A stretch of DNA of 62,858 nucleotides, filler included, from Chrysochromulina tobinii (lineage: Eukaryota): the NCBI GenBank assembly GCA_001275005.1. It is 7 parts of 7 records of this genome, joined end to end, with 100 filler letters (N's around TTAATTAATTAA, not from the genome) between each part and the next. Parts side by side here need not be neighbours in the genome. Positions count along the whole stretch, not along the records: positions 1 to 10,035 come from JWZX01000711.1; 6 more parts are not named here. One strand, written 5' to 3'. A program made the translations under genes and the position numbers. The notes under the pieces are model-generated. The model saw nothing but the letters and a program-made list of their open reading frames with translations. It was not told the DNA's origin and made no database searches. Position 1 is the stretch's first letter, and every line of letters begins with the position of its first letter. Of this stretch, positions 4,010 to 10,135 are shown in pieces.

Positions 4010-5305
4010 ATGGACAGACTTGGGCGCGACAGACTGCTCAGCTATGATCCCGGCGGAGGGCACACGGACCAGCTTCGCGACCTCTCGCTCGCGCTTGCGA
4101 CGGCCGAACTGCTCAATCGCACGCTCATCCTGCCGCGCCTCGTGTGGCACCGCGACAGCAACGTGTACACCTCCGAGAAGCAGCGCCTTCAACTCATCCG
4201 CACGCGCCCGGCGCTCTCGGCGCTCGTACAGGCGCACACATCCGTGCCGCTGCTGGACAACGTCACCCTGCTGCTGCGCGCGCACACGCTGCCGCAGTGC
4301 GCCGACGACCGCGCCGCGGCTGACGGCTGCGTGCTGATGGTCGAGCCGCCCGATATCTACACGTCGGTGAGCAAAATGCTGCGCCGCCTCGCCACGCTGG
4401 GCCACGCGCGCTGGCTGCACTTCTCCTCCATGCTCGACGTGCTCTCCGCGCGCAAGCAGGGCCGCTACCCGCTCGCCACGTGGGAGAGTCGCATGGTGCC
4501 AGCGCCGTGCAGCCTGCGCTACCAGCCGAATGTGCTCGCGGCCGCGCGCGCGGCGCTCCGCCGCGTCTTGCCGCGGCCGCACGCGGACGCTGGCGCGCCG
4601 GGCAGCGGGCTGGGCCGCGGCCACTACCTCGCCGCGCACGTGCGCGCGCTGCGCCGCGACAAGTTCAAGTCAGAGTGTGCGGAGGAGTGGCTGCCGCGCC
4701 TCGTCAACTTTACTGCGGCGCACTTGGGTTCGCACTTGGGTCCCCAGCCAAGTGAGCCGCTGTCGCCGACGAGTCCGGTGGCGATGCCGCCGCCAGCCGC
4801 GACGCTCTACGTTGCGACGGACGATCTCGACAGGGTGCTGCCGCGCGCGGCCGCCGCGCTTGCGCCTTGGCGCGTCGCCGTCGTCTCCGCGCGCGATGCC
4901 GAGCGAGAGGGCGACAGCTTCGAGCAACGGCTGGGGCTTGATTCCGAAGGCGCGCTGATGGCGCTCGACGTGGCGGCGGTGCTCGGCGCACATGCCTTCT
5001 CGCCCGCGCCGCGCTCCGGCTTGTCCGTGCACTATACCGCCATGCGCCGCTGCAACGCGGGCGCGCTCTGCGATCCTGCATACGCCGCATGCGTGCCCTA
5101 TGCCTCGTCCGGGTGTGGCGGCGCTTTCCCGCGCACGATCCTCGACGACCCGCCGCGCTGCTCGCACAACAGGGCACGGGGCCGCTATGCGGGCGAGCCC
5201 CTCTGCATGGACGCGCAGGGCGTCGAGCGGCCGTACTTTTGCCCGCCAGGGTCGGTGCCGCCGCCCGGGCCGCGAACGTGCGCTGCCGCCGTGTCGCGTC
5301 GCTAG
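4010..5305 (+). CDS. O-fucosyltransferase-like glycosyltransferase (O-FucT/POFUT, GT-B fold)
   Basis: Motifs GGGHTDQL...ALATAELLNRTLILP, YLAAHVR and LYVATDD match the POFUT/O-FucT pattern. No N-terminal membrane anchor is visible. Confidence 0.7.
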   Translation: MDRLGRDRLLSYDPGGGHTDQLRDLSLALATAELLNRTLILPRLVWHRDSNVYTSEKQRLQLIRTRPALSALVQAHTSVPLLDNVTLLLRAHTLPQCADDRAAADGCVLMVEPPDIYTSVSKMLRRLATLGHARWLHFSSMLDVLSARKQGRYPLATWESRMVPAPCSLRYQPNVLAAARAALRRVLPRPHADAGAPGSGLGRGHYLAAHVRALRRDKFKSECAEEWLPRLVNFTAAHLGSHLGPQPSEPLSPTSPVAMPPPAATLYVATDDLDRVLPRAAAALAPWRVAVVSARDAEREGDSFEQRLGLDSEGALMALDVAAVLGAHAFSPAPRSGLSVHYTAMRRCNAGALCDPAYAACVPYASSGCGGAFPRTILDDPPRCSHNRARGRYAGEPLCMDAQGVERPYFCPPGSVPPPGPRTCAAAVSRR

Positions 5306-5491: not shown

Positions 5492-7292
5492 TCATTCACT
5501 CTCGCTGTGCCACCAAGCGACGTGCTGCATACGAGCGTCGGGATGCGCCTGTCCACCTTGCCCCGGCTCCGTAGTTGGCTCCGTCGTCGGATACTCCACC
5601 AAGAGCAGAGGTAGCCCGCCGGCCGTCAAGGCTGCTGATGGCGGCGGCTGAGTGGCGCCGCTGATGGCGCTGATGGCGGCGAGCGCCGCGCCGACGAGCT
5701 CGGCGGGTAGAGTTTGCTCTCTCCACGCGTCCGAATGGGCCTCGAAGGGAGAAGTACAACGGAGAACGAGCGCTGGCGTGGATGATGGTGGCGTGGGAAG
5801 TGACGTTGGCAGCGGCGTCGGCAGCGGCGTCGGCAGCGGCGGCGTGGTGAGCGGTCTCGGCAGCGGTGGGCAGAGGGAAGGCAACGGCGTGCTGTCCCAT
5901 GCGCCGAGATTACCACCGAGATTTTCACCGAGATTGGAAGGCAACGGCGTGCTGTCCGATGCGCCGAGATGCTCACCGAGATTCCCACCGAGATTGAGCG
6001 GCGCGAGGGAGTGCAACGGCATGTCCACCGCGCCCGGCGGCCGAATTCCCCACAGGTTCACTAGCAGCGTGCGCCGTGGCGCGGCCTCTGTGGGGACACT
6101 CGCAAGCGGCGCGGGCGGCGAGTGCAAGACGCAATGCAGCAGGTCGCCAGAGAAGAAGAAGACTGAGCCCGGCGTAGGAAAGGCAAGCGCCACAGCTGTG
6201 GGAAGCTTTGGCGAGGGCGGCTGGCCAACAGGGCACCTGATGAGGGAGGCCATCAGCGTGGCCATGAGTGGCCATCAGTCAGTGGTACCATCAGTGGTCA
6301 TCAGTGGTCATCAGTCAGTGGTACTATCAGTGGTCATCAGTGGTCATCAGTGGTCATCAGTGGTCATCAGTGGTCATCAGTGGTCATGAGCGGAACCTTT
6401 GCATAAAGACCGCCGTAGGGCCGCCTGTAGTTGAGAGGTAGGTAACGGTGGAGAGGAGCGGATGGAGAGGCACGGCCTCGCCGTCGCGGGCGGCATCTCC
6501 AGCGAGCTCGCCCGCATCTCCAGCGAGCTCGCCCGCATCTCCAGCGAGCTCGCCCGCATCTCCAGCGGCCAGCTCGCCGTCATCTCGGCGAGATCTCGGC
6601 GAGATGGCGAGCACCTTGTCGGTGTGATGCTCCTTGGGCGCGTCCTCCGGCCATTGTTCTTGCAGCCACCACTCGACACCCGTGACGGCGGCGCCATGCA
6701 TCGACGGGCGGGCCGATGCGGCGGCGCGCGCCACCGCCATCACCGCGGCTTCGATTACATGCCGCGGCGCATGCAAGGCGGTCGGCGATGCCGGCCACGA
6801 ACCTGCGGCCAGCGGCAGCCAGTGCGTGCTGCACAGCGCCGTTGGGTCATCGGGCGGTGCCAGCCCGGTATCGAGATAGTGCGATGCAGCGCGCTGGGTC
6901 TCGCTCAGCAGCGGCTCGACGAGCACCGCATGCGTGAGGGTTGCGAAAGGCTCCGCCGCCGCCGCCGTGCGAGCGGCGGGCTCGACAACGAGCGCGTCCG
7001 CCTCGCTCGGCGCGTTTGTGCTGGGCTGCGCGTCGGCGAGCACGGTCGCGGGGGTGAGCGACGCCCTGCGCGCTGCGTGTACGTGGATGGAGTCAGGCAC
7101 CGCCATCTGAAGCGGCGGCACCGGCACTGTCAGCTCTGGCTTCGTGCCAGTGCCTGTGAGCGCCGCCCCGCGCTTCACGCCCAGCTCAAGATGAAGAGCG
7201 TCCAGCTCCGCCTCAATAGACGGATCGACGGCCCGCGCAGGCGAAGCCTTGGCCGACCACGAAAAGCTCGCATCGATTGGTGGCAGCGACAT
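5492..7292 (-). CDS. 2OG-Fe(II) oxygenase-like protein, 2 exons
   Basis: Intron 6237-6396 (GTTCCG...CCCTCATCAG) joins ...AVFMQR|CPVGQP... in frame. Motifs GVEWW, HHTDK (HxD), HPLLSTVTYL..GGPT, FSGDLLHCV (distal His) and RRTLLVNLW. Alternative ATG at 7313. Confidence 0.7.
6251..6388. repeat. Intronic 10-mer tandem repeat (CATCAGTGGT / ACCACTGATG)
   Basis: Visible array filling most of intron 6237-6396. Confidence 0.9.
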
Positions 7293-7767
7293 GTGGGTCA
7301 GATGTGCATTCATGTGAATTGAGAAAGGGTCAGTTGAATCGACACACAAGGTACCGACCAGCCACTACCACACGAAACGTGAATGTGAATGCGAATTGCA
7401 TTCATTATGAATACACACAACACGCAACACACCAATACGCACAAACCAAACTCAAATGCGTGAAGGGCAACACCTCGAATTCATTCACAACACACCAACA
7501 CGTACAACGCAATCTCAAAAACGTGGATTCACACCAACACGTAACAGCAACGCAGGACTCTCGAAATGAGACACATGCGGGCGGTGAGTCGAGAAACAGC
7601 CAAAATAGGAGAGTGTGCGGCGAGACCCATGTGTATTCAAAAAGCCCTTCGTCGCTCACAGCGCAGCACACTATGTTTCTCGTTCACGTACTGTTCAGTA
7701 CTTTTATTTGCCGTCTTGAGCAACGCTCTCTCACTCTCTTTCTCCAGTCTGCCTGGAGGCCGCATTT

Positions 7768-7846
7768 GCTTGCCTTCCTTTCTCGGAGACGGCACCTGCC
7801 AAATTGAGTTTGTGCACTGAGTGCCGTCTCGTCATGACGTACAAGC
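7768..7846 (-). promoter_or_regulatory. SECIS element (type II-like) in the 3'UTR of the rhodanese selenoprotein
   Basis: Minus strand reads GCTTGT-acgtc-ATGAC-GAGACGGCAC-tcagTGCaCAAActcaaTTTGGCAg-GTGCCGTCTC-CGAG-aaaggaag-GCAAGC. It has helix I, an AUGA/GA non-Watson-Crick core, a perfect 10-bp helix II and an apical mini-stem. AATAAA lies downstream at 7703-7708. Confidence 0.75.
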
Positions 7847-7997
7847 TTGGCCATCATCTCTCAAATGCCGTGCTCATCGAGGCCGCGCGCCACGCTAGCG
7901 CTCGGCGTTTCTTGAGCTCAAAGTGCGAATCTCTCCTCTCAGACGCTCAGCGCCGTCCTCCCGCTTCCGCTTACGTCGCTGTCTTCTTATGTCAGGG

Positions 7998-8525
7998 TCA
8001 GGCGCTTGCCTTCTGCTTCGCCCGACCGGTGAGAGCCGTCCATTGCGCCGGCTGATTCGGGCCGCCGCCGTTGAGTACGTTGGTGTAGCCTAGGCCCCGA
8101 AGCAGCGCGTGGGCGGTCGCAGCGCGCCCACCCCCTGAACGTCAGTGGATGATGATCGGCGTCGTCAACTCTTTGGGGAGCTGGCTGGTTGGCATCGACA
8201 TCTTGCCACCGGTCGGGTCGGCGTTGAGGTCCCAATGCACGGCCCCTTGAGCGGCCGGCACCTCGGCGATCTCAGCCATGGAGCGAAGGTCGATCACCAG
8301 GGCGCCGCTTGACTTGGCCGTTGTGATCTCATCCGGAGAGGCGAGTGCGGCAAAGCGCACCGGCGTGCTGTGGAGCAGAGAGCGGTGGAGCAAAGTGCAG
8401 GACGTATGGTGTGCGAATGCTGCAGGCGACAGGACCTGCGGGGCAGCCACGGGCGACCTGGCAAGAACCGTCCGCACCGCTGCTCGCGACGCGCGCCGCA
8501 GCAGCGCCAGCCGAAGCGCCGACAT
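7998..8525 (-). CDS. Selenocysteine-containing single-domain rhodanese-fold protein (175 aa, Sec128) with Arg/Ala-rich mitochondrial-type presequence
   Basis: Translation: ALVIDLRS..E...GAVHW...LPKELTTPIIIH-[TGA 8142-8144]-RSGGGRAATAHALLRGLGYTNVLNGGGPNQPAQW...*. The TGA sits at the active-site Cys position, the rhodanese C-terminal motif GY.NV.N.GG continues in frame, and a SECIS-like element follows. Confidence 0.85.
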
Positions 8526-10035
8526 AGAGCTCCGAATGTGCGTCGTCGCGAGAACCTCGTGAAGGTCGCCCCACTTGTTTTGAAGATCTGCTTTGTGGGT
8601 TATTTCGTGGGTTCACAGACAAGTTTACAGGAACTTCTCTCTAGGATTTGCTGACCTATTTTCCTGTAATTTCACCATTGAATTTTCCTGTGGAAAGCCC
8701 AGCGAGACTCTACAAGAGTCTCTCTGCGGAACGCAGGCATGAGCACCCTCAAAAAGCTCTCCGGCTGCGTCGGCGCAAAGGTGGGCTGCTGTTGCCCCCA
8801 CGTTAGCGCGTCGGGCCAGCGTCGCGTGGGATCGATCCAGTAGACTCCCGTGGTCCGTCTCACCCTCGCACCTGTGCATGTGCATGTGCATGTGCGCCTC
8901 TGCACGTACGCTGCGGATTCGTCGTATGAGCTTTCAGACGCTCTACTGCGTGGGTGCGATGTGGGAGGGTGAGGCGACGCCCACCTTTTGACCCATACGA
9001 CTTCGTGTCGAATCGGTGGGAGGTGATGGCGCCCAGGGAGAGCTCAGACCATGGCGTTCTGGCAGATCGAGATCATCACCGACGTTGGGATCTCCATGAA
9101 CACGGTCACCGACTCGGTCAAGCTGCTGCGCATCGTGAATGCTGACTTCCCGGTCGCGCGGCGCTTCAACGACGACCAGCATCCGAGAAGCTGCTCTCGA
9201 TGATCGAGCACGGGTCCAAGCTGTTTGCGCTGGAGGCTAAGAAAGAGCTCGATTCCATCGAAGGTGTGCCAGGCACGCCAGGCGTGCGGCACGCCAGGCG
9301 TGCGGCAGTTCCAGCTCACCGCACCAATCGGCCAGAGACTTCAACGGCATCATTGTCTGGAAGCGTGTTTGCAGGTCGAACGATGACCCATCGAGTGGCA
9401 TAGAGGGCAGTGAGATCAACAAGCCCCCGCCGCCGTGTAAAGACGCGGCTGAACAGGCGATGGCTCACTGGTGCTGAACAGGCGATGGCTCACTGGTGCT
9501 CCATGGCTCTCCATATGAGTCAGTCATCTGAAGGGGCCTCGCTTCAACAGGTGCTAGCAAAATTTGTGTGGGACTCCCTAGGGGTCACTTTCAAGTTTCA
9601 ACAGAAACCTTGGGGCAAGAACGCATGCTTCCAATTTGCCAGATTCGTCGAGGTTCGGTGGCTTTGTCGTGCAAGCAAGAGTGATTGCCAGGGCAACCCG
9701 GGTTCCCAATGGGGTTCCGGGCCGGCCTTGCCAGCACTCGCCCATTGCGTGCGCCATGAGGCTCACAAGACGCAAACATGCCTTCAGGTAGTTCCACCAT
9801 TCAGGTAGTTCCACCCTCTCGATCGGCACGATTGACGGCAAGAAGCCATGGCACGTGACCGACGGGCTGACGACGAGCGCCAATGGGCGGGTCTGCCCCC
9901 CCTTCATTGTGCACGCGCAGCCGCAGTTAAAGCCGAAGCGCCCGGGGGAGACTGCACAGCGGATGAAGAGAATGGCCACAAGGGGCAGGGCGAGGGCGGT
10001 GAGGAGGGGGGCGGGGAGGGGAGCGGCTCATGGGG

Positions 10036-10135
10036 NNNNNNNNNNNNNNNNNNNNNNNNNNNNNNNNNNNNNNNNNNNNTTAATTAATTAANNNNNNNNN
10101 NNNNNNNNNNNNNNNNNNNNNNNNNNNNNNNNNNN
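10036..10135. other. Artificial contig-joining spacer
   Basis: 44 N + TTAATTAATTAA (stops in all six frames) + 44 N. Confidence 0.98.

Follow-up and report, generated by a model that had tools for sequence, protein, structure and literature searches.

The window, by which we mean the whole stretch of 62,858 nucleotides (filler included) of Chrysochromulina tobinii DNA that was analyzed, carries on its minus strand a reading frame (8525-7998) that translates into 175 residues with a TGA as codon 128 (8144-8142), followed by 47 further codons and a terminal TGA. If TGA128 encodes selenocysteine (Sec), translation and RNA contigs together define an intronless coding sequence for 175 aa (7998..8525, minus strand). 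The preliminary description, which gave no strand, had reported the interrupted frame and its 47-codon continuation, and both are present at these positions. The mechanical ORF list ends the same ORF at 8142 with 127 aa, and the nearest named protein, a C. tobinii model that is 100% identical over the matched part, ends with PIIIH before the TGA. Past the terminal TGA, the minus strand (7971-8000) contains an in-frame CCC TGA and then six codons to a TAA, and read-through of the terminal TGA would append a short tail with two further Sec residues. This tail looks neutral because it is not kept in the orthologous locus L004 (see below) and because a change at 7985 in runs X16 and X17 introduces an earlier stop into it.

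The read-through protein matches the Pfam Rhodanese family at 27 bits (cut-off, 22.2) over residues 65 to 152, a region spanning the TGA, and the truncated 127-aa form gives no Pfam match. Hence, the rhodanese score needs the read-through. The Pfam match (PF00581), a structure model, and fold matches delimit a single rhodanese domain with a C-terminal GGGP...QW motif typical of the subfamily (8001..8354, minus strand). An AlphaFold model based on a 28-row alignment reached a pLDDT of 89.6, and its best structural match was GlpE (Z 10.5, rmsd 2.9, 98 aligned), followed by a persulfide dioxygenase-rhodanese fusion (Z 10.1, rmsd 2.8, 100 aligned), TSTD1 (Z 9.8, rmsd 2.9, 97 aligned), LmACR2 (Z 8.2), and Cdc25B and Cdc25A (Z 7.5 and 7.4, respectively); Foldseek matches concur with the rhodanese ranking. 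The mature domain contains no second Cys. The frame, the orthologues, and the close loci place the TGA (8142..8144, minus strand; predicted Sec128) at the position of the catalytic Cys, as had been proposed: this column holds Cys in 250 domain rows with a C-X4-R loop, one of which is L004 with its TGA read as C, and comparison of homologues at residue 128 thus yields TGA in the orthologous loci L004 and L005 and Cys in the C-X4-R rows.

Does the transcript retain the TGA? We compared five RNA runs (X1, X2, X6, X7, and X12), which have year and habitat in common and may stem from a single campaign. In 5/5 of them, contigs bridge 8142-8144 with the TGA unspliced and with neither another letter nor a gap. 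The X12 library contains spliced RNA, because a GT-AG intron of the neighboring minus-strand gene (skip 6234-6395) is removed there. The three positions are covered in 8/8 runs examined, none of which has a different letter, and the TGA is unchanged in X15, X16, and X17 (kind unrecorded). We therefore reject a sequencing error at the TGA and, for C. tobinii, its removal by splicing. The preliminary description had named TGC or TGT in raw reads and a spliced-out TGA as outcomes that speak against recoding; the former appears in none of the eight runs and the latter in no RNA contig. The approximate transcript extent is 7644..8559 (minus strand, inferred from the ORF), with contigs of the five runs ending at 7644-7701 and at 8536-8559, although contig ends are a weak hint of transcript ends. 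The RNA runs give no cover at 8664-10050, an absence that by itself is no evidence.

Two minus-strand ORFs (5492-7349) are joined across an intron (6235-6394) that is spliced in X12; neither piece has a Pfam match, and the intron region, where contig depth is very high, contains a repeat present in many copies. On the plus strand, a 431-aa ORF (4010-5305) gives a sub-threshold match to O-fucosyltransferase (E 1.2e-4). A CA-rich dispersed repeat that is matched by many unrelated contigs (7350-7650) adjoins the 3' end of the transcript, and the gene at L004 is also trailed by a similar CA-rich tract. Six paired runs of 44 N with 12 bases in between (10036-10135 and five more) are scaffold or masking artefacts. 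No tRNA was found in the window.

A 134-aa Emiliania-like orthologue, 52% identical to the window protein over 105 residues, is encoded at two further loci (L004 and L005) and has a TGA at the codon corresponding to TGA128. Of the 34 residues aligned past this TGA, 22 are identical, including 9 specified by different codons, and the coding frame scores 106 in the comparison, whereas the two alternative frames reach 40 and 51. A single-sequence model of the L004 protein had a pLDDT of 58 and was left out of the structural analysis. The L004 sequence matches two Emiliania huxleyi gene models (P0058 and P0185), which omit the active-site loop and, as judged by eye, run through the 3'UTR hairpin. 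At L004 131-660, the two E. huxleyi RefSeq/GenBank models (EMIHUDRAFT_254706 and EMIHUDRAFT_216676) appear to leave out both the loop with the TGA and the true stop through predicted introns and, again by eye, appear to terminate within the 3'UTR. The expectation that standard gene callers would mishandle the gene was therefore well founded, as the C. tobinii model stops short at PIIIH and the E. huxleyi models lack the loop. Our analysis corrects three public gene models, one of C. tobinii and two of E. huxleyi.

A SECIS-like element lies at 7782..7835 on the minus strand, where a pattern search and a pair count delineate an AUGAC core, an 11-bp helix II, a CAG bulge, an apical mini-stem, and a CGA core. 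The hairpin (7835-7782) is located 307 nt past TGA128, in good agreement with the roughly 300 nt given in the preliminary description, and 162 nt past the terminal stop. No mismatch interrupts the 11-bp helix of this hairpin (z about -2.7). Under a strict pattern, no other match occurs on either strand of the window, and 0/20 Markov simulations of the window gave a match; with a looser pattern, a second window match appears at 6583, within a repeat, and simulated 3'UTRs match in 10/5000 and 13/5000 cases. The L004 hairpin (581-629, 45 nt past the stop) has the same core, 10/11 pairs, the CAG bulge, and the mini-stem, and the two 3'UTRs share no alignment elsewhere. When pairs were counted outward from the core by script (MAFFT misregistered the two hairpins), 4 of the 11 helix pairs differed on both sides between window and L004, 1 differed on one side, 1 was broken, and 5 were the same, a covariation that comprises two independent sequences. 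Both orthologues thus have a SECIS core (AUGAN...NGA) closing a helix II of 11 to 12 bp. The L004 hairpin is not stabler than its shuffles (z +1.2), and Rfam detected no SECIS family at 6500-9500 with E-values up to 10.

The accessible parts of the SECISearch literature state that the search patterns require an unpaired AA or CC 10 to 13 nt from the core (PMC1802603 and PMC2375036). Neither hairpin has this feature, and CAG is found there instead; an AAA in the window hairpin starts 19 nt after the core. The missing AA/CC lowers the case for a canonical SECIS, not the case for an element that works like one, and the CAG common to the two sequences suggests a non-canonical apical motif. Because both the TGA and the hairpin are conserved in the orthologue, we consider it highly probable that TGA128 is recoded as Sec. 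Alternatively, the UGA could be a true stop in a nonsense allele or pseudogene, could be spliced out, or could be read as Cys or Trp without Sec, and the non-canonical apical motif as well as the absence of the loop from the E. huxleyi gene models would fit such a scenario. However, the stop position is common to lineages that are only ~45-56% identical, protein-level conservation continues past the TGA and is accompanied by a covarying SECIS core, and the RNA contigs are unspliced at the TGA. Moreover, TGA is the terminal stop in both the window gene and L004, which argues against a genome-wide reassignment. We regard a UGA without Sec as very unlikely, and the situation in which all orthologues have Cys and lack a conserved SECIS, raised in the preliminary description, is not what we found: a distant orthologue has both the TGA and a covarying hairpin.

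How widespread is the interruption? Among the matches listed, 49 of 50 truncated relatives end one residue before the catalytic site. They represent 7 clusters or groups, two of which were sampled at 15/39 and 15/20 members, and the identity of the stop codon is taken from the two lineages represented by DNA. The shared stop position spans lineages of ~45-56% identity, and the lineage of P0006 is 90% identical to the window protein; the comparison of stop codon, loop, and SECIS leaves out P0006, P0116, P0133, and P0053. In a 37-row tree, five TGA/truncated representatives, three of which are rows without the C-terminal half, fall on one side of a branch with support of 86/88. A 78-row tree places the TGA/truncated rows at an open fork. 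A single Cys-to-Sec change is compatible with the 37-row grouping, which neither shows nor rejects it. The trees contain no Cdc25 or ACR2 sequence. On a different branch, P0053, a 106-aa rhodanese from an ENA contig, has W in the catalytic column (HWNKGGR) and possibly represents a second, independent TGA/Sec lineage, the protein having been conceptually translated under a code in which TGA stands for W. A prokaryotic genome scan with one narrow pattern returned 8 matches with no relative among them, and 6 short matches (23 to 30 residues) from a viral scan were dismissed as chance; L007, the one that was translated, is not a rhodanese.

The N-terminus of the window protein resembles a targeting sequence. 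Residues 1 to 57 include 8 Arg, 11 Ala, and 7 Ser and not a single Asp or Glu, which confirms the Arg/Ala/Ser-rich, acid-free character noted earlier; residues 8 to 18 are amphipathic (hydrophobic moment, 0.90), and three relatives have N-termini similar to this region. On the basis of this composition, the hydrophobic moment, and the relatives, residues 1 to ~57 form a predicted mitochondrial presequence (8355..8525, minus strand), and the protein is probably imported into mitochondria. Cleavage near residue 57 upon import is likely. Plastid targeting was rejected because a strong hydrophobic signal stretch is absent, which is a weak test.

The active-site loop sets the window protein apart. 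Its sequence is U-R-S-G-G-G-R (U-X5-R; 8124..8144, minus strand) in the context H-U-R-S-G-G-G-R-A, and profile alignment and codons show that it is one Gly longer than the loop of its relatives. Our profile alignment comprised 152 proteins with 277 domain rows, 273 of which span the loop; the spacer has four residues in 271 of these domains and six in one, and only the window protein has five. The preliminary description had fitted the protein to the C.SG.R pattern with its X4 spacer, and in this respect it needs correction. The orthologue at L004/L005 does have a U-X4-R loop (U-R-S-G-G-R). The U-X5-R loop occurs in 4/4 close loci, the window and the metagenome loci L001-L003, which are 98-99% identical and in which TGA, loop, and hairpin are unaltered, with indels in both flanks. 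The extra Gly is encoded within a G-rich codon run, GGG GGT GGG.

Loop length is relevant to function: C-X4-R/T loops are linked to sulfur transfer and C-X5-R loops to phosphatase activity or arsenate reduction, according to the available portion of PMC10135228. Could the extra Gly then form a Cdc25/ACR2-like oxyanion cradle (H-U-X5-R), making the selenoprotein an arsenate reductase or phosphatase? The accessible text of PMC6272796 reports that loops of seven residues accommodate phosphate or arsenate substrates and, citing the work second-hand, that lengthening RhdA by one residue shifted its selectivity to phosphate compounds. The U-X5-R loop is unique among the 273 aligned domains and present in all four close loci, and residues 118 to 142 match PTP-SAK (E 5.7e-4) and Y_phosphatase (E 0.0097), matches that are absent from the X4 orthologue. 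However, both scores are below the cut-offs, and the fold is closer to sulfurtransferases than to Cdc25 or LmACR2 (Z 7.4-8.2). In protein tyrosine phosphatases (PTPs), a Ser or Thr follows the loop Arg; in the window protein it is Ala. The close relatives all have X4 loops, which suggests that the remainder of the protein was shaped by a function other than oxyanion chemistry, and the insertion may be young, because it is found in nearly identical loci. Taken together, an oxyanion-handling enzyme appears unlikely.

The same insertion could also have weakened or disabled an enzyme that still receives Sec, leaving the gene to drift in this species complex. Slippage in the G-rich run could produce it, no other aligned relative tolerates an X5 loop, and one X15 contig is altered in the apical part of the hairpin by a substitution and a 5-nt deletion, with core and helix kept. 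Yet the gene is transcribed, and TGA, downstream frame, core, and helix II are invariant in the four loci and in the runs, while the flanks have accumulated indels. We consider a decaying gene to be quite improbable.

Our preferred reading, to which we give somewhat better than even credence, is that the locus is an intronless, transcribed haptophyte gene for a mitochondrial Sec-sulfurtransferase with a single rhodanese domain. The 3'UTR hairpin would recruit SBP2/eEFSec and Sec would be inserted at UGA128, steps of which we are fairly certain from comparison of the two genes. The presequence would guide the protein into mitochondria and be cut near residue 57, as suggested by the composition and moment of residues 1 to 57 and by the similar N-termini of three relatives. 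With thiosulfate or glutathione persulfide as the donor, Sec128 may then attack the sulfane sulfur to form an enzyme selenenyl-sulfide, the sulfur of which would be passed on to sulfite, thioredoxin, or a thiol, a reaction for which TSTD1-type enzymes use Cys; this transfer would feed the clearance of sulfide and persulfide. The additional Gly would be a tolerated lineage-specific insertion.

We propose sulfur-transfer chemistry because of the fold, the X4 loop of the orthologue, and the fusions of relatives to sulfur-related domains. A metallo-beta-lactamase domain, which we take to be persulfide-dioxygenase-like, is fused to the rhodanese domain in 4 of the 17 Cys relatives scanned (P0027, P0078, P0100, and P0083), and P0027 and P0078 also carry sulphur-transport and DUF6691 domains. 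Against a sulfurtransferase, the window protein lacks the X4 loop that marks these enzymes, the one-residue elongation of RhdA altered its selectivity, and the sulfur fusions sit in Cys relatives on other branches; further relatives carry fusions to domains with no evident link to sulfur (IPP-2 and PhyH). Might the Sec-rhodanese serve instead for selenium carriage or thiol-peroxide redox chemistry? Most selenoproteins are oxidoreductases. In addition, some rhodanese loops of six residues are active on selenium compounds (accessible text of PMC6272796), and a response to selenium or a requirement for it is documented for E. huxleyi and several species of Chrysochromulina (accessible text of PMC6254913). 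However, the mature domain has no second Cys to resolve a selenenic acid, and no fusion or neighbor points to selenium metabolism, and a role of this kind seems unlikely.

Sec at a rhodanese active site is not new to algae. The available text of Jiang et al. 2020 (PMC7539508) lists Rhod (rhodanese) among 42 algal selenoprotein families, places it in a Rhod-MSRA gene cluster of Mamiellales, and puts the number of E. huxleyi selenoprotein genes at 96, among which the orthologue from this alga may already be tabulated; in this text, 'Chrysochromulina' does not appear, and loop length, targeting, or SECIS details of Rhod are not given. Like the window protein, in which Sec is predicted at the rhodanese active site, algal Rhod is a eukaryotic rhodanese-domain selenoprotein recognized from TGA and SECIS and proposed to be a sulfur transferase. 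Hence, as far as this source goes, the class is already known in algae and the window gene is not a new class. Of the preliminary description, the Sec inference stands, and its question of whether such proteins had been described in algae is answered by the listed Rhod family.

TSTD1, GlpE, PspE, and yeast Rdl1/Rdl2 share with the window protein a single rhodanese domain of the same fold and a nucleophile positioned where the strand preceding the loop ends, but they have Cys and a six-residue loop, as against the seven-residue loop and predicted Sec of the window protein, and the identity to single-domain sulfurtransferases is 15-27% in structural alignments. Cdc25 and ACR2 combine the rhodanese fold with an H-C-X5-R loop, against H-U-X5-R here, but their fold scores are lower (Z 7.4-8.3, versus 9.8-10.5 for sulfurtransferases). 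Because the sequence relatives of the window protein are X4 rhodaneses, its long loop looks independently gained. Five prokaryotic Sec-rhodanese forms are tabulated in the accessible part of PMC13188914, with Sec in the PF00581 domain; forms 2 and 4 have a UxxG motif, which U-R-S-G in the window protein fits, and neither orthologue matches NF041203 or NF045694 (forms 3 and 5) at E 0.1. Unlike these prokaryotic forms, the window gene has a eukaryotic 3'UTR SECIS-like hairpin and a predicted presequence. Sec-rhodaneses have also been found in marine metagenomes (PMC2398784). SelTryp is different, with Cys in its rhodanese domains and Sec at the C-terminus (accessible text of PMC1557815). Selenoproteins of E. 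huxleyi were shown by 75Se labeling, and selenium use is described for Chrysochromulina species (accessible text of PMC6254913). Our literature searches turned up no experimental work on a eukaryotic Sec-rhodanese, no paper on an E. huxleyi selenoprotein sulfurtransferase, and none joining selenocysteine and CX5R, which does not prove their absence from print.

In summary, the window gene and its orthologue likely define a haptophyte branch of Sec-rhodaneses, which goes beyond plain family membership in its unique seven-residue loop and in its conserved non-canonical SECIS bulge. A bolder proposal, that loop elongation turned a mitochondrial Sec-sulfurtransferase into a Sec phosphatase or arsenate reductase and that SECIS elements with a CAG bulge have been missed, leaving haptophyte selenoproteomes undercounted, is improbable as a whole; if true, nature would have repeated the engineered RhdA switch on the rhodanese/Cdc25 fold. 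The conserved CAG bulge is a hint that SECIS searches demanding AA or CC may miss algal selenoproteins, and the orthologous pair with U-X4-R and U-X5-R loops provides a natural test of how loop length selects between sulfur and phosphate with selenium as the nucleophile.
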